Of a DNA stretch of 64,000 nt, positions 4,788 through 27,627 are shown piece after piece. Positions within the stretch are counted from its first letter, which is position 1, and each line of letters begins with the position of its first letter. The position numbers were made by a program, and so were the translations under genes. Location: positions 5,939-69,938 of the forward strand of contig CAYFWJ010000002.1 in assembly GCA_964346755.1 (NCBI GenBank), written 5' to 3'. Under the pieces are notes generated by a model. That model worked only from the letters and a program-made list of their open reading frames with translations. It did no database searches and had not been told where the DNA came from. The DNA comes from an uncultured Ectothiorhodospiraceae bacterium. Lineage in GTDB: Bacteria > Pseudomonadota > Gammaproteobacteria > CAYFWJ01.

Positions 4788-6347
4788 CTAGCTGTCCTTG
4801 AGCCAACGGACGTTGTAGAGATCGAGGCGCCGATCTTGTAGGTTGCGTACGCTGCCCGACAGACGCAGCTCCTTGAGTTTATCGAGGTCCAGGTCCGAGA
4901 TGAGGGTCATCTCGGTGTTCGGCGTCGCCTCGTCCGCGATGGCGTCGTGGGGAAAGGCGAAATCCGACGGCGTGAACACAGCGGCCTGCGAGTATTGCAT
5001 ATCGCTGTTCTCGACCTTCGGCAGGTTGCCGACGCTGCCTGTGGTGATCACGTAGCACTCGTTCTCGATCGCCCGGGCTTGGCCGCAGCGACGCACCCGC
5101 AAATAGGCATTGCGGGTGTCGGTCCAGAAGGGCACGAACAGCAGCTGCATCCCTTGCTCGCCGAGCAGGCGGGTCAATTCGGGGAACTCAACATCGTAGC
5201 AGATCAGGATCCCGACCTTGCCCGCGTCGGTCTGGAAGACCTGTAGCTCGTTACCCCCTTGCAGGCCCCAGTAGGTCGCCTCGTCCGGCGTGATATGGAG
5301 CTTGTATTGGCGGTCGATGGTGCCGTCGCGATGACACAGGTAACACACGTTGCGCAGGACCTGATCCTGGTACTCCGGCATGCTCCCGGCGATGATATTG
5401 ATGTTATAGACGATGGCCAGCTCCGCCATCTTGTCCCGCAGTGGCTCGGTGTATTGGGCGAGATCGCGGATCGCCTGTGCCGGGTTGTCTTGATTGAATT
5501 GCGCCATGAGCGGGATGTTGAAGAACTCCGGGAACAGCAGAAAGTCGGCCTGATAGCCAGCGACTGCGTCGACGAAGAACTCCACCTGTTGCAGGAGCTC
5601 CTCGAGGCTACCGACCGAGCGCATCTGCCATTGCACGGCCCCGATACGGATCACGCGCTTGGGGGCCGTCACCGTACTCGCCGGGTCCTCATAGTGGATA
5701 TTGGTCCACTCCAACAAGACCGCATACCCACGGGATTCCGAATCCTCAGGGGAATAACCGGGAATCAGCCCGCGGATATGGAAGTCGTTCGCAAGCTGGA
5801 AGCTCAGGACCGGGTCGAAGATCTCTTTGGCCTTGACCTGTTCGACGTAATCGCTCGGCGTCATCGTATCCATGTGGCGCGCATACCCGGGGATGCGTCC
5901 ACCGACGACGAAGGCTCGAAGGTTCAGCTTGCGACACAGCGCCTTGCGGGCGTCGTAGAGGCGGCGGCCGAGACGCATACCCCGATAATCGGGATGCACG
6001 AAGATATCCACGCCATACAGCGTGTCTCCGTGGGGGTCATGGGTCGTCAAAAAACCGTTGCCCGTGATCTGCCGGTAGGTGTGGCGATCACCAAAGCGCC
6101 GGTAATCGACGATCAGGCTGATCGCGGCGGCCACGACGCGGCCGTGATCCTCAATGCATAACTGACCTTCGGGGAAACGCGTGACCTGGGCGGCGAATTG
6201 CTTCTCCGCCCAGGCACCGCCGAGACTGGGATAGACTCGGTCCATGATCTCGGCCAGATCCGGGTAGTCGACCGGGGTCAAGGTGCGGAGGCTCAGGTTG
6301 TGCTGACGTTCGGAGACTTCGGGCGTTGAGATCGCCTCATGATTCAT
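4788..6347 (-). CDS. Bifunctional GNAT N-acetyltransferase / carbon-nitrogen hydrolase (nitrilase superfamily) fusion protein
   Basis: The N-terminal ~170 aa form a GNAT fold (acetyl-CoA motif RGMRLGRRLY). The C-terminal ~300 aa form a CN-hydrolase domain with the catalytic E-K-C triad context (FPEFF, ILICYDVEFPE). Confidence 0.75.
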   Translation of the reverse strand: MNHEAISTPEVSERQHNLSLRTLTPVDYPDLAEIMDRVYPSLGGAWAEKQFAAQVTRFPEGQLCIEDHGRVVAAAISLIVDYRRFGDRHTYRQITGNGFLTTHDPHGDTLYGVDIFVHPDYRGMRLGRRLYDARKALCRKLNLRAFVVGGRIPGYARHMDTMTPSDYVEQVKAKEIFDPVLSFQLANDFHIRGLIPGYSPEDSESRGYAVLLEWTNIHYEDPASTVTAPKRVIRIGAVQWQMRSVGSLEELLQQVEFFVDAVAGYQADFLLFPEFFNIPLMAQFNQDNPAQAIRDLAQYTEPLRDKMAELAIVYNINIIAGSMPEYQDQVLRNVCYLCHRDGTIDRQYKLHITPDEATYWGLQGGNELQVFQTDAGKVGILICYDVEFPELTRLLGEQGMQLLFVPFWTDTRNAYLRVRRCGQARAIENECYVITTGSVGNLPKVENSDMQYSQAAVFTPSDFAFPHDAIADEATPNTEMTLISDLDLDKLKELRLSGSVRNLQDRRLDLYNVRWLKDS

Positions 6348-6664
6348 GGCGGGCAGCTCGTTGACGGGGCTTGGGTTGAACGGCGTCCGCGGCCATAGGC
6401 GAGCGGGCGGTGTCCGTCAGGGGGCGGTTCATGGCCATGCAGCCCGCCCGATGGGCGTCGCCCGCACCCGCCCCGAGGCGTCGTGGTGTCACCGCCTTGG
6501 GTTCGATCGTTGGTGCCAAGCGCAACAGCCAATCCAGGATAGTCAAGGGCAAGGCCTCCGGTCAAAGGGCTGCCGTTCGGGTCGGTGGCACGCGTCGCGG
6601 CGTGAAATTCCCCATCGGCATCGCGTTGATCCGAGGTCCTCGAGGAGGCATGCTAACCTCTTGT

Positions 6665-6683
6665 GATGTCATTGTTCGACATC
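6665..6683. promoter_or_regulatory. Inverted repeat GATGTC-N7-GACATC in the divergent intergenic region between the GNAT-nitrilase gene and the Rrf2 regulator gene (candidate Rrf2 operator)
   Basis: Read directly from the sequence (GATGTCATTGTTCGACATC) about 90 bp upstream of the Rrf2 start, in a locally AT-richer stretch. Confidence 0.3.
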
Positions 6684-6768
6684 GAGCCGGTGGGGATCGC
6701 GCGCCTCCCGGCGGCTCGCCGATGACTCAACCCATCCCCGCGACGAGCGATGAGGCCGTCATGCCATC

Positions 6769-7215
6769 ATGCACCTGACCCAGCAGACCGACTATGCCCT
6801 TCGCGTGCTCATGTACCTCGCCTTGAGTCGGGAACGACGCGTGACGGTCTCGGAGCTGTCCGAGCGGCTGGATATCGCCCGTAACCACCTCACCAAAATC
6901 GTCCATCGTCTGGCCCGCGAGGGTTTGGTCCTTACGGTTCGTGGACCCCAAGGGGGCGTGACGCTCGCGAAAGAGCCGGCGACGATTCGGGTCGGGTACG
7001 TGGTGCGACGAACGGAACCCACCTTGAAACCCGTCGATTGCCAGCAACCGGGGTGTCCGCTGGCTAGCGCTTGCCGACTCGCCTCGGTTTGGGAGCGGGC
7101 TCGAGATGCCTTTCTCCGAGAGCTCGATGAGTGCAGCGTTGCGGATCTCGTCGTGAATCGCCACGAGCTTTTGCCGCTGTTGGAGCGGACAGATCTCGAT
7201 TCGTCGACGGGCTAG
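6769..7215 (+). CDS. Rrf2 family transcriptional regulator (IscR/NsrR-like, putative Fe-S cluster ligand cysteines)
   Basis: N-terminal wHTH (TDYALRVLMYLA, VSELSERLDI, LTKIVHRLAREGLV) and three cysteines spaced CxxxxCxxxxxC, typical of cluster-binding Rrf2 proteins. It is divergent from the GNAT-nitrilase gene, and its 3' end overlaps the 3' end of the convergent sirtuin gene by 4 nt. Confidence 0.8.
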   Translation: MHLTQQTDYALRVLMYLALSRERRVTVSELSERLDIARNHLTKIVHRLAREGLVLTVRGPQGGVTLAKEPATIRVGYVVRRTEPTLKPVDCQQPGCPLASACRLASVWERARDAFLRELDECSVADLVVNRHELLPLLERTDLDSSTG

Positions 7216-8234
7216 GTCGAGTCGATCTCGGCTCGAGGGGGGCCTCCTCCTTGGGTTGACTCGGTTGGTCGGTCGGGACGGTGCGGGTTGCCAGGCCCCG
7301 ATCCGGTTGGTGATCGGTCCTCGAATAACGTGGGCAGGATGGTCTCGCATGAACCATCGAGCTTTTCCCACGCGAGGTCGTCCGCTCGGGTCCGTCCGCG
7401 GTTGAGGATCAGGATCGGGATACCGATTTGGGCCGCGTGGCGACAGAAGCGGTACCCTGAGTAGACCATCAGGGACGAGCCCACGACAACCATCAGGTCA
7501 CTCCGCGCGAGGGCTGAGTAGGCTGCGTCGACTCGTTCGCTGGGCATGGATTCGCCGAAGAAGACGACATCCGGTTTGAGCACCCCACGGCACCGTGGAC
7601 AGGCGGGCACTTGAAAGCGTCCGGCGACCGGCTCGCTTCGCTCCGCATCGCCGTCGGGAGCGCTCGGGGCCGGTTCGATGCGGTCCGGTACCCCATTGAG
7701 GTGAGCCAACTGCTCTTGGAAGTCTACGCGGCTCAGTCGGAACGCACAATCGAGGCAAATCACATCCGCGAGTCGTCCGTGGAGTTCCAGGACGTCGGTC
7801 GACCCCGCGGTCTGATGGAGACCGTCGACGTTTTGGGTGACGAGTCGCTCGACCCGGCCTCGGTGCTCCAATCGTGCCAAGGCCGTATGCGCCGAATTCG
7901 GGCGAGCGCGACGCAGCCGTTCCCACCCGACCTGACTGCGGGCCCAGTAGCGTTGCCGAGCCGTTGGGTCAGCAACGAAGGACTGGTACCGCATGGGCTG
8001 CGGTCGTTTCCAATCCCCGCCGGCGTCTCGATAATCCGGTATTCCACTGGGTGTGCTGCACCCGGCCCCGGTTAACACGAAGAGCCGCGTGAACTCCCTC
8101 AGCCGAACCCGAACACGGTCCAGGGCGGTGTGCGACTCGGTCACTGGCCATTGCCCCCGGGTTGGCCCTCGCCGTTGAGCGGGAGCGGCGGTTGGGGGTA
8201 GCGTTCCGGGCGGTTCATGGGTCGCCGGCCTCAC
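7212..8234 (-). CDS. NAD-dependent protein deacylase, Sir2 family (sirtuin)
   Basis: Sirtuin motifs GAGxSxxSGIPDYR, QNVDGLH and a Zn ribbon CxxC...CxxC are present. It has a ~45-aa N-terminal extension and a Pro/Gly-rich low-complexity C-terminal tail. Its start overlaps the upstream ORF by 20 nt. Confidence 0.8.
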   Translation of the reverse strand: MRPATHEPPGTLPPTAAPAQRRGPTRGQWPVTESHTALDRVRVRLREFTRLFVLTGAGCSTPSGIPDYRDAGGDWKRPQPMRYQSFVADPTARQRYWARSQVGWERLRRARPNSAHTALARLEHRGRVERLVTQNVDGLHQTAGSTDVLELHGRLADVICLDCAFRLSRVDFQEQLAHLNGVPDRIEPAPSAPDGDAERSEPVAGRFQVPACPRCRGVLKPDVVFFGESMPSERVDAAYSALARSDLMVVVGSSLMVYSGYRFCRHAAQIGIPILILNRGRTRADDLAWEKLDGSCETILPTLFEDRSPTGSGPGNPHRPDRPTESTQGGGPPRAEIDST

Positions 8235-9117
8235 CGCGCTTCACGGGTAGGTTCAGCGCCTCGCCGAGTCGCTCCAGGGCCGACCAGCCCTGCGCCTCGT
8301 CGGATACGCGAAGGATGGCGATCCGTCCGCCGTGGGGGGCCCCGGCGTCGGTCAAATCCCACTCCAGCTGGATGCCGTCCGCTGCCAATCGGGCCTGTAG
8401 CGCGGTATCCTTTGCGACCGGGCCGCTCGCGTCGGTGAAGCATGAGAAGACATAGCCGCCTGGGGGTGGCCCCCGCTGCGCCCATCGGCCGGTGTCGACC
8501 AGCCGCGCCCAATCGCGCACCCAACCCGGTCCGTAGAACTCGATAAAGGCGTTGGATCCGCGCAGATGGGCCTCGATGACGTAGCCTTGCAGGAGCTCGA
8601 AGTTGGTGATCCCCGTGTAATCCGGCAGATTTGCGGCGATCCATTCGGTTAACTGGGCCTCGATGGCGGGGGCGGAGCCCCCGATGCGCCAATAGACCGG
8701 ACGGGTGTCGACCCGTTGCGGTGAGGCGCTGGTATGGGCGAACCACACGGCCCGCCCCGATTGGACCATAACGTCGGTGCTCGTTTGCTCACCGGTGAGC
8801 AGCTCCGACCAAAAATACCCGGGCTCCTCGGGGATGGCCTCGGCCGAGACGGGGCGGGCCCCCTTGGATAGGCCGAAGAGATTCGTGATGGGCTTGAGGA
8901 AGACGGTCGTCTCCGGGGCGAACCCGTAACGGGCCGGGGGAACGCCCGTCGGCGCCGCCGTGACCCCCTGGGTCAGGGCGAGCTCCAGCTTGTTGTAGAC
9001 CCAACGGTGTCGCGGATTGAGGCGCCAGGCCTCGGCATCGCTGACGCCGATGGCGCGATAGGGCTCTACCTCCGCGAAGATGTGGCGTCGACGCGGCAAA
9101 ATGCCATAGAACGGCAT
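8215..9117 (-). CDS. Hypothetical protein, possibly ATP-grasp-like fold (unassigned)
   Basis: This 300-aa ORF is packed tightly between the Mo-oxidoreductase (4-nt gap) and the sirtuin (20-nt overlap). There are weak ATP-grasp-like segments (FLKPITNLFGLSKGA, IEFYGPG), but no family could be assigned by eye. Confidence 0.55.
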   Translation of the reverse strand: MPFYGILPRRRHIFAEVEPYRAIGVSDAEAWRLNPRHRWVYNKLELALTQGVTAAPTGVPPARYGFAPETTVFLKPITNLFGLSKGARPVSAEAIPEEPGYFWSELLTGEQTSTDVMVQSGRAVWFAHTSASPQRVDTRPVYWRIGGSAPAIEAQLTEWIAANLPDYTGITNFELLQGYVIEAHLRGSNAFIEFYGPGWVRDWARLVDTGRWAQRGPPPGGYVFSCFTDASGPVAKDTALQARLAADGIQLEWDLTDAGAPHGGRIAILRVSDEAQGWSALERLGEALNLPVKRGEAGDP

Positions 9118-9120
9118 CCG

Positions 9121-11226
9121 TCAAACCTTCTCAACGTTGCACAGGGCGGATTTGAAGGGCGGGAAGCCACTGATCGGGTCCAGGGCCCGATCGTCGGTCA
9201 ACTCGTTGACATTGGCCTCGGCCCAGCCATGGAAGCAGTGTACGACCCCTGGCTGGAGACGATCCGTTAGCTCGGCGATGAAGCGGACCGCGCCGCGCTC
9301 CGTGCCGACGCGGACGGAATCGCCGGTCTGAATCCCGCGCGCCGCGGCATCCGTCGGGTGAAGTTGCGCGCGAGGGACGGGGTCCGTCGCCGCAATATGC
9401 GGGACGTTGTGCTGCTGGGAATGGGTGTAGGCCTTGCTGCGCCCCCCCGAGGTCAGGACCAGCGGATAGCGCTCGGCGAGGTCCGGTCGGGAGACCGGGC
9501 TCTCGGCGGGTTCCTGATAGATCGGGAGGCCGTCGTAGCCGGCTGACCGCAACTCCTCGGAATCGAACTCGATCCGCCCGCTCCACGTCGGGAACCCTTT
9601 GACGGTATAGAGTCGATCGGCGTCTTCGAGCTCGGCGAGCATCTCGGTCCAGACCGTCGCTCCCTCGGGGTCGTTGAAGGCGGCATCGCGAATGGATTCC
9701 GGGAGGCCGCTGGCTTGCACGTCGATGGCCGCTTGCAGATTGCCGTGCCAGAACGTTGCCGGGTCCTCGAGGCGACAACCGAGATCGAGAAAGATCTGGG
9801 CGTCGGAACGGGCCTCACCACGCGGGGGGAGAACGGCCTCGCGGTAGCGCACCTCCCCCTTGAATTGACATCCCGGATAGGCAATCAGGGTGGGGCGCTC
9901 AAGGGCCGTGGCTGCCGGCAGCACGAGATCCGCGTGGCGGGTTGCCTCGTTGTGGAAGAAGTCGGTGCAGACGCTGAACTCGAGTTGGTTCAGGCCCTCC
10001 ACGAAGCGACGGGAATTGGGAAACATGGTGCTGTTGATCCCCATCGCGACCAGCCCCCGCAGTCGCGTTGATCCCTCACCCTGCATGCAGTCGTTCATGA
10101 GCATGCTCTGGGCGGCAGGCCAGTAGCGGGTCCAGATCGGGAAGCGATCGTCACCGATTCGGGGCGGTAGTGCCTCGATCCGCTCCTGGAACCGGTCGAT
10201 CGGGGTCGGGGTATACTTGTCCAGGAAGAAACGGTTTCCCCCCTGGTTATCCACGTTACCGGTGGTTGCCGCGAGTAGGATGATGGCCCGATGGTTCTGG
10301 AACCCGTTGCTGTGTTGAACCGTGGCGGTTGGCGAGAGCACCAGTTGGGCGGGGCCTTGCGTTGCGTAGAGTCGAGCGGCCTCTTCGAGTTGCGCCGTCG
10401 GAATGCCGCAGATGGCGGCTGTGCGTTCCGGGGTGAAGGCCTGCACATAGGCTCGAAACGCCTCAACGCCGGTCGCCCACTCCCTGAGCAGGTCCTCGTC
10501 GGCCCAGCCATTGGCGAAGATGACATGGTGCATGCCCAAGGCGAGGGCGCCATCGGTGCCGGGGCGGATCTGCAGATGGAGATCGGCGGCCTCTGCCGTC
10601 TCGCTCCGCCGGGGGTCCACGACCACGAGGGTCCGGCCGGCTCGCTGATCCAAGATGTGATGGCGCTCGTAGGGCATCACCGAGTGGGGCGGATTGGTCG
10701 ACCAGACTATGAGTGTCCGGGTTTGGGGCTGTTCCAGCAGGCTGGAACTCTTCAAACGATACCCGTACGTCAGCTTCTCGGCGACGAGTGTGGCCGAAAA
10801 ACAGCACCCCGACTCCGTCAGATAATTCGGTGAGCCGAAGGTGTGCGCGAGCCGTTGGAGGAAGGGTCTCGCCTCTTTGGTGTAACCGGCGAAGAAGCCG
10901 ACGGATTCCGGCCCATAGCGCTGCCGCAGGTCTTTGAGTCGTTCGGCGATCGTGTCGAGTGCCTCATCCCAGTCAATGCGTTCGAATGCCCCATGACCCC
11001 GCTGGCCGGTCCGTTTGAGCGGGTACAGGAGGCGGTCCGGATGGTTCTGACGGCCGAGCTGCCCGGTGCCACGCAGGCAGGGGGGGCCCTGAAGCCGGCG
11101 GATCGCCCCCGAGGCGTCCCGTTCGACTCGAAAGACACAATTGGCATCGCACTCGTAACACGTGGTGCGTTGGGTAGGAGTCGGTTGGGATTGGTTATCG
11201 CGGAGAGCGGAGGGGGTCGCGCTCAT
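9121..11226 (-). CDS. Molybdopterin-dependent oxidoreductase, MopB (bis-MGD) family, cytoplasmic, with N-terminal 4Fe-4S cysteine cluster
   Basis: N-terminal CxxCxxxC...C cluster (CYECDANCVF...C) followed by molybdopterin oxidoreductase domains (GCPNCx-like region, HNEAT, a C-terminal molydop-binding beta-barrel). No signal peptide. First gene of a three-gene minus-strand operon. Confidence 0.8.
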   Translation of the reverse strand: MSATPSALRDNQSQPTPTQRTTCYECDANCVFRVERDASGAIRRLQGPPCLRGTGQLGRQNHPDRLLYPLKRTGQRGHGAFERIDWDEALDTIAERLKDLRQRYGPESVGFFAGYTKEARPFLQRLAHTFGSPNYLTESGCCFSATLVAEKLTYGYRLKSSSLLEQPQTRTLIVWSTNPPHSVMPYERHHILDQRAGRTLVVVDPRRSETAEAADLHLQIRPGTDGALALGMHHVIFANGWADEDLLREWATGVEAFRAYVQAFTPERTAAICGIPTAQLEEAARLYATQGPAQLVLSPTATVQHSNGFQNHRAIILLAATTGNVDNQGGNRFFLDKYTPTPIDRFQERIEALPPRIGDDRFPIWTRYWPAAQSMLMNDCMQGEGSTRLRGLVAMGINSTMFPNSRRFVEGLNQLEFSVCTDFFHNEATRHADLVLPAATALERPTLIAYPGCQFKGEVRYREAVLPPRGEARSDAQIFLDLGCRLEDPATFWHGNLQAAIDVQASGLPESIRDAAFNDPEGATVWTEMLAELEDADRLYTVKGFPTWSGRIEFDSEELRSAGYDGLPIYQEPAESPVSRPDLAERYPLVLTSGGRSKAYTHSQQHNVPHIAATDPVPRAQLHPTDAAARGIQTGDSVRVGTERGAVRFIAELTDRLQPGVVHCFHGWAEANVNELTDDRALDPISGFPPFKSALCNVEKV

Positions 11227-11620
11227 AGGTCGTCGTCGTCCTCGTGCGTCAGCGACAAGTGTTTCGATGGGTTAGTAGACAATGGAACGGTGCGTCGATT
11301 CAAGCGCGGTCTTGGGCCGTTTTTTTGTCTTGTACAATAGAACAGGCATCGGTCGATGCGCGCCCGAGGAGAATCGATTCGGCTGATATCGCCGCTCGGT
11401 TGGGTTGCTGCATTCGAGAATGGCACCCGCCGTGGGTCGACCCCACATTCGCTCGATCGGGCTATCCGCTGAGGGTGCGATCGTACCTCGGGGTGAGGCA
11501 GCACGCGCGCGCTGGCGCGATGGATCCCCGGGCGGGTGGTTCTCCGGGGCGACCCGAGACCGGCTCGGTCTCGCAGCGACGCTCGCTTGGCCGGCGCACC
11601 CGCAGGTGATTGACCCACCG

Positions 11621-11647
11621 AGCACGGTGCGGTGAGCACGGTGCGGT
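11621..11647. repeat. Perfect 13-bp tandem duplication AGCACGGTGCGGT x2 separated by a single G
   Basis: Read directly from the sequence in the 0.87-kb MopB/HiPIP intergenic region. Confidence 0.8.
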
Positions 11648-11685
11648 CGGGCCGGTCGCTGTGGGCCGGCTTCGACCGCACCGTG
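11637..11685. repeat. 13-bp perfect inverted repeat CACGGTGCGGTCG / CGACCGCACCGTG with a 23-nt GC-rich spacer, giving a large potential hairpin
   Basis: Read directly from the sequence. The left arm is the second tandem copy, so alternative stems are possible. Confidence 0.75.
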
Positions 11686-12092
11686 GGCTGGGATCACCCG
11701 GGGGCGGCCGTGGGGAGGCTCGCCGTCCGGGGACGCCGTGGATCCCTTCTTGAAGGCTCGTTGATCGCCATCATCCGGGCGATCAACGCACTCGGCGGCG
11801 AGGCCCCGAACCGCCTCGCCGTCTGACGCCGGATCCGATGGTTAGCCGTTGGGTTGGGTCACCGGAGTTAATCAAGGCAGGGCACGATCCTGACCGAGAG
11901 ACGCGAGCCAACCGACAGGTTGGTCTGTATTCCATCGAACTTCATTTGGTGTGACGAGCCAAAAAATTGGGCAAAACGGTTGAACGGGATCTGGACCGAT
12001 GCCATCGTAATCATATGGAGTCGTACTACACTAACGCTGGGCTAACCGCTCAACGGATCCATCCTTACGTTTTCCGATACGAGGTGATGACT

Positions 12093-12395
12093 ATGCATCA
12101 ATCCGATCGTCGTGCGTTTCTCAAGAAGAGCCTGATCGGTCTGGCTGCGCTGCCCTTCGGCGCTGGCGTTCTGAGCACCCGGGCCCTGGCCGCGGACATG
12201 CCGATGCTGACCGAGGACAACCCCCAGGCGAAGGCCCTCCAATACGCGGCGGATGCCAGCGCGGCCGGTGCTCCCTCGGGCCAGGTCTGCACCAACTGCA
12301 TGCATTACAAAGCAGAGAATCAGGGCTGCGCCCTGTTCCCCGGCTACTCCGTCCACAAGAACGGCTGGTGCTCCGCCTGGGCCGCAGCTTCGTAA
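12093..12395 (+). CDS. High-potential iron-sulfur protein (HiPIP) precursor with Tat signal peptide
   Basis: Twin-arginine motif SDRRAFLKK with an AxA cleavage region, then the HiPIP 4-Cys pattern (CxxCxxY...C...WC). The annotated ORF starts at 11967, but a GAGGTG RBS supports the ATG at 12093 (MHQSDRRAFL...). Confidence 0.85.
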   Translation: MHQSDRRAFLKKSLIGLAALPFGAGVLSTRALAADMPMLTEDNPQAKALQYAADASAAGAPSGQVCTNCMHYKAENQGCALFPGYSVHKNGWCSAWAAAS

Positions 12396-12440
12396 GCGAC
12401 GGACCGGCTCGATTCGCAGTCGGCACCTGACCGCCCTTGA

Positions 12441-12469
12441 GGCGCCATCCGCCGTCATCGGATGGCGCC
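12441..12469 (+). terminator. GC-rich hairpin (11-bp perfect stem GGCGCCATCCG/CGGATGGCGCC, 7-nt loop) 45 nt downstream of the HiPIP stop
   Basis: Inverted repeat seen in the sequence. There is no U-tract, so an intrinsic-terminator role is only inferred. Confidence 0.45.
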
Positions 12470-13194
12470 GCCCTACCCATCGGCCAGCCTGACGGGAATC
12501 GGCCGATGGAAACGGGTTTGCCGCTTTTGAAGTGTACTGCCCGTCGGTTGGATTGCATCAATCCCATTGGCATCGAATTAGAGCTCGCCAGCCACCATGT
12601 CGAATCAACTCGCCTCTCTACCTGATTATTATTATCATTCTTTTGCTGGATTGCAACCCTACGCTTAATCCGGTTTAGGTCTGATGGCCGAGTTCCAGAT
12701 AGGGATGACCGCCCCTTGCGCCCAGATGCGATCTGGCTCGTTCGGTGAGATCGCGTTGCAACGCGGGTTGCTCTCGATAGGCTCCGCTGGCCGAGTTGTC
12801 CCGGATCGATTGGAAGGGGAAGGGCTTGACCCTCGAGGCCGCCCGGATAACCGCGTTTCCCCCGTCGAATATGATGACCGTCGGGGAGTAATCGACGCCC
12901 AAGGCGTCGGTCCCTACTCGAGCGGTTGTTGGGGTGCGCTCGGGGGTCGGGATCGGCGTACGGCTCCAGCGATTGACTTGGATCGCTTGGATGTCGTTGA
13001 GTCGTTTGCCGGTCGTGGGGTGGCTGAGGTTGTCGAGGGTCGGTCGCGGGCCAGGCGCGGTGCCGGTTTTGGGCGGGCCCAGCGGGTCCTGGGGCCTTGG
13101 GATTCAGGCGTCGCTGGGGAACGCTTCAGGAGGTGCTACGCGGTTGATTGCCACGGCGAGTTTGGCTCGGTCACGAGGGGCCGGCCGCCACGCG

Positions 13195-22580: not shown

Positions 22581-24230
22581 GTGCCCGTCGAGTCGCCTTG
22601 TCGCTGGCCCCACGTTATCGTGGTCGGAGTGTTTATGATCCCAATGGACGATGCTTCAACACGTCGAGATTTTGAGCTGCAACACAAGTGTCCGCACCTC
22701 GAAGCCCTGGCGGGAAGGGCCTCCATGGAGGTCATTGACGGGTGCATCGAGCGAATTGCCACCGACAACCGGGCGACCCTTGATTGTACGGCGCGGACCG
22801 AATCCCTTGAAGGCTTTGCCACGGCCTATACGGCGCTTGTGCAACGTTTCTGGTCCGTTGCCCGGCGGGGGCGCGCGGTCTCGAGCGACGAGGAAACAGT
22901 GCGGGGGCGGCTGCGGGACTTGGTTCAGGAGCTGATTGTCGGCTATAACCTGGTGATCAATGACCGCTTGCAACAGGACGCGGTTCCGGATCGCTCGGGG
23001 CTGACCCGGAGCGTCGAGCGTTGTGTGCGTTTCCTCGGTCTACTCGTCGTCGACAGCTACGGTCGGTATCAGGCGCCAGCGGATCGGGTTTGGTACGGCC
23101 TGCACCGTTTCTTCTTGTTCGCCGAGCAACAGGGGATTCAGGATCTGGAAGTTAGTCGTCCGGGCAGCGTCATCCCGAGCAGCATCCTACAGACCTATAA
23201 GCGTATCCTGCTCGTGGCCCTTGCGGATCCCTATCGGTTGGCGCCCGGCGATATCTGGGTGGTTTATCAGCAGCTTGATTACTCGCGATCGTGGGTCGAT
23301 CGGTGCCGGATCGGCGATCAACCCACGGGCGAGGAGAGCTCGGGATTCGTCCTCGATTTGGGGAGCGATGACCGGGCGAAACCGTTGTTGCCGGAAGAAA
23401 AGGCCTTTTTGAAGACCAAGCAGAATCGTCTTGTGGACCTACACGATTTCGTCGATGCCATCGAGGAATCGCTCATGGATCGAGAGCTGAGCCATGAGGG
23501 CAGCGAGGCGACTGGGTCGGCAGAGCGCCAGGGTTCGAATCCGGGCGTCACGATCCCCGAGCGGGGCATTGACGATCGGGTGGGCCAATCGGCTTTGCGT
23601 CGGGCCTTACACAGCTGGCGTCGTTCGGCTCAACGGCAATACCCGCGACAGCCCCGGGAAGATTGGGTGGAGTTGATCATGGGTTTTCGGGGGGTTCAGA
23701 ACTATGTTGACGAATTAGAACAACCCTCCAACGGCAGGGAGCTGCGCAGCCGCTCCGCGTATCGCCGCGGCCGACGATTCTTTCAGCTGATCGACGAGAG
23801 CTCCGGTGGCCTGGGTTTCCATGCACCCAAAAGTCGCATGGGGGAATCGATTCATGTGGGACAAACCGTGCTAAGGACATCCGAATCAAGCTTTAACGAG
23901 CGCTCGCCGGTGCGCTTGGGCGTTATCCGCTGGCTGAATGAACTCGGTGATGACGGGGTCCGCTTCGGTTTGGAACTCTTCGGCGATCAGGTGACGAGTG
24001 TTCAGATCCATCCCTCGGATGCATCGGTCGCAAAACCCATCGTTGGGGTCTACGCGCGATTCAGTATCGTCGATGAGGAGGGGGGGGTAGTGGTTAGTTC
24101 ACCCGGGGTCTACAGTCCAAGCCGTCACCTTGTGCTCGAGCGTCGCAACCAACGGTGGACGGTTTACGCAACGCGCCTCCTCAGTGCAACCATGGATCAG
24201 GAACTCTTCGCCTGCCGTTTGGCCCGCTGA
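22581..24230 (+). CDS. Hypothetical protein (549 aa) with C-terminal PilZ-like motifs (possible c-di-GMP receptor)
   Basis: The ORF is long with GC3-rich codons. The C-terminal third carries RRGRR immediately before DESSGG (RxxxR / DxSxGG-like), followed by beta-strand-like segments (VRLGVIRWL, VRFGLELFGD). The N-terminal ~350 aa are unassigned. The start could instead be an internal Met (MIPMDD...). Confidence 0.5.
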   Translation: MPVESPCRWPHVIVVGVFMIPMDDASTRRDFELQHKCPHLEALAGRASMEVIDGCIERIATDNRATLDCTARTESLEGFATAYTALVQRFWSVARRGRAVSSDEETVRGRLRDLVQELIVGYNLVINDRLQQDAVPDRSGLTRSVERCVRFLGLLVVDSYGRYQAPADRVWYGLHRFFLFAEQQGIQDLEVSRPGSVIPSSILQTYKRILLVALADPYRLAPGDIWVVYQQLDYSRSWVDRCRIGDQPTGEESSGFVLDLGSDDRAKPLLPEEKAFLKTKQNRLVDLHDFVDAIEESLMDRELSHEGSEATGSAERQGSNPGVTIPERGIDDRVGQSALRRALHSWRRSAQRQYPRQPREDWVELIMGFRGVQNYVDELEQPSNGRELRSRSAYRRGRRFFQLIDESSGGLGFHAPKSRMGESIHVGQTVLRTSESSFNERSPVRLGVIRWLNELGDDGVRFGLELFGDQVTSVQIHPSDASVAKPIVGVYARFSIVDEEGGVVVSSPGVYSPSRHLVLERRNQRWTVYATRLLSATMDQELFACRLAR

Positions 24231-25609: not shown

Positions 25610-26401
25610 TCAGTGGACGTCTTTCCAGTACTCACGCTTCAGGTAGTAGGCAACGATCAAGAAGAGCCCGAGATACAACAAGACCCACATTCCAATGCGT
25701 GGGCGGTCCAGCTTGGCCGGTTCAGCCAAGTAAACCATAAAGTTTACCAGATCTCGGATCATCATGTCGTACTCGGACGGGGTAAGTTCACCCGGTTGTA
25801 CGATCTCGAAACCATCGATGATCTTGGTCGTCTCCCCGTCGGCGGCCTGCGCCCCCCCGCCGTGGTCTCCACTGGGGATTGTCTTATACACCGGCTTTTG
25901 TAGCCCTTGGAGCTCCCAAAGCACGTGTGGCATGCCGACCCCGGCAAACACAGCGTTATTGACGCCGAGGGGGCGTGAGTCATCCACGTAGAAGGTCCGC
26001 AGATAGGTGTACAGCCAATCGGCCCCCCGTGAGCGTGCCGTCAACGTGAGATCGGGCGGGGCGTTGCCGAACGCGGACTCCCCGTACGATTCCGTCATGG
26101 CGTTCGTCATCTGATCGGCGAGCTCTTGATTCCCCACGGTCAGGTTGTTCTCAACCTGCTCTTTGGTGAGGCCGAGATCTTTGACCAAATGGCTATACCG
26201 CATGTAAGTTGCGGAGTGGCAGCCCATGCAGTAGTTTACGAAGTACTTCGCACCACGCTGCAACGAGGCTTGGTTGTTGAGGTTGATGTCTACCTCATCC
26301 AAGGGATAACTCTGGCCGCCCGCGGCCGATGCCAGCGGGATACCGCTGACGAGCCAGACGCCGGTGAGCAGCAAAGCAAACAACAGGGACGAAGGCCTCA
26401 T
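25610..26401 (-). CDS. petC: Cytochrome c1 (ubiquinol-cytochrome c reductase subunit)
   Basis: Signal peptide, the heme motif CMGCHS and a C-terminal TM anchor. Third gene of the petABC operon. Confidence 0.9.
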   Translation of the reverse strand: MRPSSLLFALLLTGVWLVSGIPLASAAGGQSYPLDEVDINLNNQASLQRGAKYFVNYCMGCHSATYMRYSHLVKDLGLTKEQVENNLTVGNQELADQMTNAMTESYGESAFGNAPPDLTLTARSRGADWLYTYLRTFYVDDSRPLGVNNAVFAGVGMPHVLWELQGLQKPVYKTIPSGDHGGGAQAADGETTKIIDGFEIVQPGELTPSEYDMMIRDLVNFMVYLAEPAKLDRPRIGMWVLLYLGLFLIVAYYLKREYWKDVH

Positions 26402-27627
26402 GTGTGGAACCTCACGCGCTCAGGTTCGGGTTTTGTCGGATCCATCGCCGTGTAGAACGGCATGAGGAGGAAGAAGGCAAAGTAGATTACCGTAAAGATC
26501 TGGCTCAGAACCGTCAGGGTCGGTGTCGCGGGCTGCATGCCGAGCCAGCCGAGCACCAGAAAGCTCACGATAAACAGGCTGAGCCAGGTCTGATGCATCC
26601 AACCCCGATACCGGATGGACTTCACCCGCCCTCGATCGAGCCATGGCAGGAAGAAGAGCAAGGCGATCGCGGCGAACATGGCCACCACCCCGAGGAACTT
26701 GTCCGGGACCGCCCTTAGGATCGCGTAGAAGGGCGTGAAGTACCAAACTGGGGCGATGTGTTCGGGGGTCTGAAGCGGATCAGCTGGTATAAAGTTCGCA
26801 TGCTCCAGGAAGTACCCGTTCATCTCAGGCATAAAGAAGACGACACCAGAGAACAGCATCAGGAACACGACCAACCCGACGGTATCCTTCACGGTGTAGT
26901 AGGGATGAAAGGGGATACCATCGAGGGGAATGCCGTTCTCATCCTTTTTCTTCTTGATCTCGATCCCGTCGGGATTGTTGGAGCCCACCTCATGAAGGGC
27001 CATGATGTGGACGACGACGAGCCCCAGCAGGACGATCGGCATCGCGATGACATGAAGGGAGAAGAATCGGTTGAGTGTGGCATCGGAGATCACGTAATCG
27101 CCCCGAATCCACAAAGCAAGATCCTCGCCGAAATACGGGATCGCGCCGAACAGCGAGATGATGACCTGGGCGCCCCAGTACGACATCTGTCCCCAGGGGA
27201 GCAGATAACCCATGAAGGCCTCAGCCATGAGCACCAGGTAGATCAGCATGCCGAGAATCCACACCAGTTCGCGCGGCTTGCGGTATGAGCCGTAGATCAG
27301 CGCACGGAACATATGGAGATACACGACAATAAAGAAGAACGATGCACCGGTCGAGTGCATGTAGCGGATCAGCCAACCCCACGGCACATCCCGCATGATG
27401 TATTCGACCGACGCGAAGGCCTGCTGGGCGTCCGGTTTGTAATGCATCGTGAGGAAAATGCCGGTCACGATTTGAATGACCAGCACGACGATGGAAAGCG
27501 CCCCGAAGTAGTACCAGAAGTTGAAGTTCTTGGGGGCGTAGTATTTAGCGAGGTGATCGTTCCAGATCGCTAAAAGCGGGAAACGATCATCAACCCAGCG
27601 AACCAGGTTCATCGCGGGATTTGCCAT
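26398..27627 (-). CDS. petB: Cytochrome b (ubiquinol-cytochrome c reductase subunit)
   Basis: Cytochrome b heme-ligand histidines and conserved motifs (PEW-like region, LPWGQMSYWGA). Overlaps petC by 4 nt. Confidence 0.9.
   Translation of the reverse strand: MANPAMNLVRWVDDRFPLLAIWNDHLAKYYAPKNFNFWYYFGALSIVVLVIQIVTGIFLTMHYKPDAQQAFASVEYIMRDVPWGWLIRYMHSTGASFFFIVVYLHMFRALIYGSYRKPRELVWILGMLIYLVLMAEAFMGYLLPWGQMSYWGAQVIISLFGAIPYFGEDLALWIRGDYVISDATLNRFFSLHVIAMPIVLLGLVVVHIMALHEVGSNNPDGIEIKKKKDENGIPLDGIPFHPYYTVKDTVGLVVFLMLFSGVVFFMPEMNGYFLEHANFIPADPLQTPEHIAPVWYFTPFYAILRAVPDKFLGVVAMFAAIALLFFLPWLDRGRVKSIRYRGWMHQTWLSLFIVSFLVLGWLGMQPATPTLTVLSQIFTVIYFAFFLLMPFYTAMDPTKPEPERVRFHT

Follow-up and report, generated by a model that had tools for sequence, protein, structure and literature searches.

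A conserved gene pair encoding a molybdopterin enzyme and an ATP-grasp-fold protein, with a testable link to ergothioneine

Sulfur insertion in ergothioneine synthesis is known to proceed by three routes, those of EgtB, of EanB and of MES, the metallopterin-dependent ergothioneine synthase. We know of no ATP-grasp enzyme that is used in any of these three. The ligase EgtA is of the GCS2 type and is not an ATP-grasp protein either. Here, two neighbouring genes are described from a stretch of 64,000 nucleotides (nt) of an uncultured Ectothiorhodospiraceae bacterium (contig CAYFWJ010000002.1). This whole stretch is called the window. One gene encodes an enzyme of the molybdopterin oxidoreductase type, below simply called MopB, and the other a protein with an ATP-grasp fold. 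Together they make up an enzyme pair that has not been described before, and its link to ergothioneine can be tested.

MES was described from Caldithrix abyssi, and its N-module is related to acetylene hydratase (Beliaeva & Seebeck 2022, PMC9516567). These are also the described systems that come closest to the MopB of the window. In phmmer comparisons, MopB scores at least 256 bits against the N-module of CaMES and at least 247 bits against that of EaMES, at 31% identity over the full length; the MES scores are lower bounds because the sequences were machine-read from the PDF supplement of PMC9516567. CaMES has the top score among the characterised proteins tested, slightly above acetylene hydratase, which is itself the closest PDB chain (2e7z, 224-228 bits). 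In BLAST comparisons, MES and acetylene hydratase stand at about the same distance from MopB, and either is nearer to MopB than to the other.

Two MopB domains were found in the 701 amino acids (aa), PF00384 with 147.5 bits and PF01568 with 94.4 bits, both above cut-off, and there is no other domain. Close to the N-terminus lies a [4Fe-4S] motif, C23-x2-C26-D27-x2-C30...C50, and neither a signal peptide nor a twin-arginine translocation (TAT) motif was found in the protein. The original prediction, a model's reading of the letters of the window, had called this a cytoplasmic iron-sulfur molybdopterin enzyme, which is borne out by the cysteine motif and by the missing export signals. Among 121 orthologues of MopB, C23, C26, D27, C30, C50, R52, C142 and F143 are invariant. 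C142 is the second half of a Cys-Cys pair, of which the first, C141, is found in 120 of the 121. C142, the predicted Mo/W ligand, aligns with Cys141 of acetylene hydratase and Cys153 of CaMES. The extra Cys141 could carry a persulfide; acetylene hydratase and MES have a single cysteine at this place.

MopB stays under every NCBIfam cut-off, and the more familiar identities were rejected. Against formate dehydrogenase (TIGR01591) it scores 260.5 bits where 666 are required, and the ligand Cys142 is followed by Phe and not by His. The assimilatory nitrate reductases NasC and NasA give 217 against 1100 and 119 against 1000, and PhsA gives 220 bits against 694. Dimethyl sulfoxide, thiosulfate and trimethylamine N-oxide reductases are all far under their cut-offs as well.

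With MES, MopB shares the four-cysteine [4Fe-4S] motif and the cysteine metal ligand, and both are linked to ergothioneine genes, directly or by way of a partner gene family. MopB differs from MES in its extra Cys141 and its ATP-grasp partner, neither of which MES has. There is also no adjacent egtD in the window, and the hosts of the pair include aerobes and phototrophs and are not only strict anaerobes.

Acetylene hydratase from Pelobacter/Syntrophotalea acetylenica is, like MopB, a cytoplasmic single-subunit MopB protein with a [4Fe-4S] cluster. The C-x2-C-D motif is kept between the two, such that D27 corresponds to Asp13, and the ligand C142 to Cys141. Identity is only about 30%, however, and acetylene hydratase has no ATP-grasp partner. 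Seiffert and colleagues reportedly found in 2007 that acetylene is held there by a hydrophobic ring of Ile14, Ile113, Ile142, Trp179, Trp293 and Trp472. Three of these positions can be mapped onto MopB, and none is kept: Ile14 is A28, Ile113 is T116 and Ile142 is F143. Judged by its sequence, MopB is best placed as a third lineage of the acetylene hydratase/MES branch, and as a member of neither family.

The gene downstream of MopB is the one with which it is consistently found. It is the middle one of three genes on the minus strand of the window, and the possibility had been raised that it is a mis-called frame. This can be put aside: 272 homologues of the protein were found in Chromatiales, Thiotrichales and relatives, and an alignment of 24 sequences has 59 invariant columns. 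Genome loci carrying the gene were analysed, 80 in all. In 62 of them the gene is preceded by a MopB orthologue (58-64% identity) in the same orientation, 53 times within 300 nt, while 12 loci with enough flanking sequence have no such orthologue. Both genes occur together in Chromatiaceae, Ectothiorhodospiraceae, Thioalkalivibrio, Thiohalorhabdus and Thiothrix. It is very probable that the MopB and ATP-grasp genes form a functional unit.

No other gene belongs to this unit as far as the 80 loci go, as clustering of their flanking open reading frames (ORFs) yielded no third conserved gene. A large 'cluster 2' of such ORFs was rejected as a conserved neighbour, since it is made up of antisense ORFs. 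The flanking genes differ by lineage, and include aroA-cmk-rpsA, sensor kinases and ABC ATPases. In the closest metagenome relatives of MopB (68-69% identity), the pair is kept, as a MopB gene and a 290-aa gene, with a convergent hexapeptide transferase gene after them, and there is no sirtuin. Two Ectothiorhodospiraceae metagenome-assembled genomes (L001 5140-6827 and L004 8606-10506) have the ATP-grasp gene without MopB upstream; here the order is tig-clpP-clpX before the gene, and an AXE1-like esterase gene and a second esterase gene after it.

The middle protein had been noted as ATP-grasp-like, and the fold assignment agrees: it has an ATP-grasp fold. By family models it is an orphan. There is no match in Pfam, NCBIfam or PADLOC for the protein itself, nor for ten of its distant relatives. 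The 24 family members have no Pfam, NCBIfam or PDB-sequence match either, the best being GSH-S_ATP with an E-value of 0.14 in one member. A profile search of PDB sequences with the middle protein gave chance matches only. Compared to the carboxylate-amine ligases BL00235/BacD, PurK, PurT, PurD and PylC, identity is 9-17% without similarity at the level of hidden Markov models, and the protein of the window is about 100 aa shorter, with an invariant M-P-F-x-G N-terminus.

This N-terminus is found in 24 of the 24 members, and MPF or MPI is common in distant subfamilies. Once the Met is removed, the Pro would become residue one. Further invariant positions in the alignment are P76, N79, G82, N172, E174, E182, H184, R186 and N189, and residue 75, which is K in the window, is always Lys or Arg. 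These positions make up three motifs: K75-P76 with the Gly-rich loop N79-L80-x-G82, then N172-x-E174, and finally E182-x-H184-x-R186-G-S-N189. The role of such motifs in binding ATP and Mg is taken from known ATP-grasp enzymes, and in the present family all three are putative ATP/Mg sites.

When 1.84 billion representative proteins were searched with a profile, the ATP-grasp family proved large, with 879 clusters (E<=1e-3), of which only 3 fall in the subfamily that is linked to MopB. None of the relatives tested from this wider family carries a family annotation. One is fungal, from Actinomortierella ambigua (GCA_015849275.1, locus L171, 8001-8915), and lies amid eukaryotic genes (Rtf2, GOST, glutaredoxin, SulP); no adjoining Egt1-like gene was seen there in 10 kb. 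Another (locus L172, 4006-12942) sits between a SulP/STAS transporter gene and a peptidase S15 gene. Genes for a D-Ala-D-Ala-ligase-like protein and for another, larger MopB are found within 5 kb of it; this MopB has an AhtL-like first domain and is only 23% identical to the MopB of the window.

It is the wider ATP-grasp family that leads to ergothioneine. Three relatives on long contigs each have two egt genes as neighbours, one for EgtB, of the DinB_2/FGE-sulfatase type, and one for EgtD, of the Methyltransf_33 type. For the alphaproteobacterial subfamily, 80 metagenome loci were collected, of which 52 have at least 2.4 kb upstream and are therefore informative. In 49 of these 52, egtB-egtD directly precedes the ATP-grasp gene, in the same orientation. 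A second, more divergent lineage has egtB-egtD divergently transcribed from the ATP-grasp gene. The alphaproteobacterial subfamily and that of the window can be aligned over their whole length, with an hhalign probability of 100% and 35% identity, and the K, N-x-E and E-x-H-x-R residues are retained in the egt-linked subfamily as well.

The subfamily of the window itself has two such cases. In Thiothrix caldifontis (locus L064), the gene order is ATP-grasp, DsrE-like, egtB, egtD and lastly a gene for an EgtE-type class-V aminotransferase. The DsrE/DsrF-like sulfur-carrier gene, at 8890-9324 on the minus strand of that locus, lies between the ATP-grasp gene and egtB-egtD. In Thiohalocapsa sp. 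ML1 (locus L058), MopB and ATP-grasp genes are 6 kb from egtB-egtD, and this is the only locus in which EgtD is within 8 kb of the pair. Members of the ATP-grasp family are encoded beside egtB and egtD, in Thiothrix also beside an EgtE-like aminotransferase gene, while no ATP-grasp enzyme is known to belong to a described ergothioneine route, be it EgtA-E or EgtB-EgtD. In the literature searched, no relevant paper was found that joins ergothioneine or acetylene hydratase with ATP-grasp, that deals with egtB/egtD neighbourhoods, or that reports ergothioneine in Chromatiales or Thiothrix.

The evidence points to ergothioneine because two independent lines lead there, the gene neighbourhoods of the partner and the nearest characterised relative of MopB. 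The ATP-grasp family is probably tied to ergothioneine. That MopB acts on the same metabolite is a more tentative proposition. Whether the two genes form a cassette that works in 2-thiohistidine (ergothioneine/hercynine) metabolism, with a substrate and a chemistry that we infer, is in our estimate evenly balanced, but this is the likeliest of the explanations considered.

Several observations weigh against such a role. MopB does not have the C-terminal pyridoxal phosphate (PLP) cysteine desulfurase that is fused to MES, and has Asp27 after the second cluster cysteine where MES has Pro. There are no egtB or egtD genes in the 64-kb window (EgtD by tblastn, E < 1e-6), and in the subfamily of the window only 2 of the 80 loci have egt genes within 8 kb. 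The egt-linked loci are mostly from closely related soil Alphaproteobacteria (73-93% identity), which means that they amount to about four independent associations and not 49. At roughly 35% identity, the two ATP-grasp subfamilies could differ in substrate. The relatives at loci L083, L087, L171 and L172 are without either partner, and in the literature searched no ATP-grasp protein has a role in any ergothioneine pathway.

In a different explanation, the pair has some other small molecule, unrelated to ergothioneine, as its substrate. The Asp27/Cys142 metal site might, for example, serve to hydrate or hydroxylate a compound that is unsaturated or heteroaromatic, and the product would then undergo ligation, carboxylation or phosphorylation by the ATP-grasp protein. 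In that case the egt genes beside the distant ATP-grasp subfamily would go with another substrate. The invariant Asp is as in acetylene hydratase, egt genes are not nearby at most loci, the similarity between the subfamilies is low, and other ATP-grasp relatives adjoin SulP, peptidase S15 or RCC1 genes. Yet members of the window's own subfamily are beside or near egtB-egtD in two genera, the mappable positions of the acetylene ring are changed, and no neighbourhood suggests an alternative substrate. We consider this explanation somewhat unlikely.

The ATP-grasp protein might instead serve MopB itself, as an accessory or maturation factor and not as a metabolic enzyme. This could be by a post-translational modification like that of RimK or tubulin-tyrosine ligase, or by cofactor insertion. 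Speaking for it are the tight coupling of the two genes, the fact that the MopB/ATP-grasp cassette has no electron-transfer subunit, and a protein that is shorter than typical ligases with an N-terminus that does not vary. Such a role looks improbable.

If the pair does work on ergothioneine or hercynine, MopB would act at C2 of the trimethylhistidine imidazole, where it would form or cleave a bond. The bond could be C-S, as in MES, or, in the manner of acetylene hydratase, C-O with water as the source of the oxygen and by way of the conserved Asp27. The ATP-grasp protein would activate an oxygen, of a carboxylate or an imidazolone, as a phosphate ester in an ATP-dependent step, by acyl- or O-phosphorylation. 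The activated phosphate would then be attacked by an amine, a thiol or a sulfide. The same activation would also be needed, or at least useful, alongside the O2-dependent EgtB route.

A further step is to suppose that the pair puts in or restores the sulfur at C2 of ergothioneine, by an undescribed route that depends on ATP but not on O2. In Alphaproteobacteria, and possibly in fungi, the same ATP-grasp family would then be a part of EgtB-type clusters that has so far been overlooked. As an example, MopB could oxidise C2 of hercynine with water, the ATP-grasp protein could O-phosphorylate the resulting imidazolone, and sulfide or a persulfide could displace the phosphate. In this full form the proposal is speculative, and we rate it as unlikely. 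More generally, the two types of neighbourhood, one with egtB-egtD in soil Alphaproteobacteria and one with a relative of MES and acetylene hydratase in sulfur-oxidising Gammaproteobacteria, suggest that ergothioneine is made, modified or repaired with the help of an ATP-dependent step that is missing from the known pathways. If true, this would also provide an orphan clade of molybdenum/tungsten enzymes, which is widespread, with a function.

The genes and sites concerned are listed in Table 1.

Table 1 Genes and sequence sites of the locus, in window coordinates.
Feature	Position	Strand	Remarks
MopB enzyme gene	9121-11226	-	701 aa, ORF confirmed
ATP-grasp-fold gene (middle ORF)	8215-9117	-	300 aa, ORF confirmed; no Pfam or NCBIfam model
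Sir2 gene, longest ORF	7212-8234	-	340 aa; probable start GTG 8144, giving 310 aa
Rrf2-family regulator gene	6769-7215	+	148 aa, C91/C96/C102
MopB/ATP-grasp junction	9118-9135	-	MopB stop, 3-nt spacer, Shine-Dalgarno-like GAGAAGG; sequence read
G5 run	8154-8158	-	G6 in sister assembly L082; decides in-frame upstream start of sirtuin

An ORF listing returns all four genes at the positions originally given for them. The junction within the pair is very short. The MopB stop codon, TGA at 9123-9121, is followed by cgg and then by the ATG of the middle ORF at 9117, and a Shine-Dalgarno-like GAGAAGG lies inside the 3' end of MopB, 8 nt 5' of this ATG. Read in this way, the junction is plausibly consistent with translational coupling. 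The tight spacing that had been claimed here is real, but the gap is of 3 nt and not of 4 nt.

The third minus-strand gene, for a Sir2 sirtuin, is a different matter. MopB, the middle protein and Sir2 had been put forward as a possible functional unit, and a neighbourhood conserved in no other genome had been named as the finding that would count against it. This is what was found, because Sir2 is absent from all related loci: none of the 80 genome loci has one within 8 kb on either side of the middle gene, and neither have the 3 nearest metagenome relatives. A trio that includes Sir2 was seen only in two assemblies of the organism of the window, L081 (metagenome contig JGI 3300012002, that of the window) and L082.

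The start of the sirtuin gene is also in doubt. The window was compared to the sister assembly L082, from the same organism, over 3,241 shared nt, and the sole difference is one extra G in L082 at the G-run listed in Table 1. With six G's, the sirtuin is in frame with an ATG at window position 8218-8216, which overlaps the stop of the middle ORF as ATGA. With the five G's of the window, the same ATG opens a frame of only 25 codons, and the start in frame with the sirtuin is GTG 8234. The two sequences predict unrelated N-terminal peptides. The earliest start that they have in common is GTG 8144 (V31), 9 nt past the G-run, and starting there leaves a gap of 70 nt to the middle ORF.

The alignment of the sirtuin to NF003738 (383 bits, cut-off 305) covers residues 37-306. 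Since the start shifts with the indel, since GTG 8144 is common to both assemblies and since the family model only begins at residue 37, the N-terminal extension and the 20-nt overlap with the middle ORF, both part of the original prediction, are probably artefacts of the choice of start. The overlap exists only with the longest-ORF start at GTG 8234, and is gone with GTG 8144. The indel itself could reflect true polymorphism, or else an error of assembly in the homopolymer. The JGI call has the opposite problem: it has 260 aa, starting from M81, cuts off the GAG NAD-binding motif at 56-58 and is judged too short.

In other respects, the sirtuin was described correctly. It is a class II (SIRT4-like, PRK05333) Sir2 NAD-dependent deacylase that passes the curated cut-off of NF003738. 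The features of the class (NF003738/PRK05333) are all present: G56-A-G58 of the NAD pocket, QNVDGLH, the catalytic His152, and a zinc ribbon of four cysteines, C160/C163/C212/C215. The Pro/Gly-rich C-terminal tail that had been pointed out is there as well, and extends about 34 aa past the NF003738 model. A role as a defence system was rejected, as there is no PADLOC match. By all appearances this is an ordinary member of NF003738, and an incidental, lineage-specific neighbour of the pair. For annotation, this means that the adjacency would be incidental and the start codon mis-called.

No support was found for a coupling of redox chemistry to deacylation or ADP-ribosylation, and the start codon on which the proposed co-translation of the sirtuin depends is unreliable. 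That MopB, the ATP-grasp protein and Sir2 form one pathway, with a redox step coupled to NAD-dependent deacylation or ADP-ribosylation, gains something from the shared strand, from the lack of any terminator-like site between the three genes and from the ATGA overlap in L082, but with the sirtuin missing from every related locus, its start made ambiguous by the G-run and the protein itself an ordinary family member without a defence match, this is very improbable.

On the opposite strand, the stop codons of Sir2 and of the Rrf2 regulator gene overlap in the palindrome CTAG at 7212-7215, which serves both stops, just as the claimed convergent 4-nt overlap of the 3' ends has it. The regulator passes the superfamily test (TIGR00738, 124 bits against a cut-off of 73), and its three cluster cysteines, C91, C96 and C102, fit the iron-sulfur Rrf2 regulator that had been proposed. 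It was rejected as an NsrR equivalog, with 129 bits against a cut-off of 182 for NF008240. There is no Rrf2 match in any of the 80 genome loci, and by this comparison the regulator appears to lie outside the conserved module, as another lineage-specific neighbour.

A scan for promoters and terminators gave nothing beyond the level of shuffled sequence, and an Rfam search of 6000-13000 gave no match, the molybdenum cofactor (Moco) riboswitch included. Upstream of MopB, a gene for a high-potential iron-sulfur protein (HiPIP) at 11967-12395 on the plus strand is divergent from it and encodes a twin-arginine signal, RRAFLKK... This protein was rejected as a redox partner of MopB, since the signal peptide makes it periplasmic while MopB is cytoplasmic. 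The roughly 0.8 kb between the start of MopB and the HiPIP gene (11227-12092) contains no convincing gene, JGI calls there being ORFs of 48 and 64 aa only. A terminator-like hairpin with a T-run lies in this region, at 11306-11330 on the plus strand.

Elsewhere in the window, the gene at 4788-6347 (minus strand) encodes a 519-aa fusion of a GNAT acetyltransferase and a carbon-nitrogen hydrolase of the nitrilase superfamily, which is under all NCBIfam cut-offs. A 549-aa ORF at 22581-24230 (plus strand), after guaB-guaA, has no Pfam match at E<=1e-5. Between 24000 and 30000, around the cytochrome bc1 genes (petB at 26398-27627, cytochrome c1 at 25610-26401), G+C is 0.57-0.59, compared to about 0.63 elsewhere. 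AT skew is positive at 26-28 kb, where it is +0.13.

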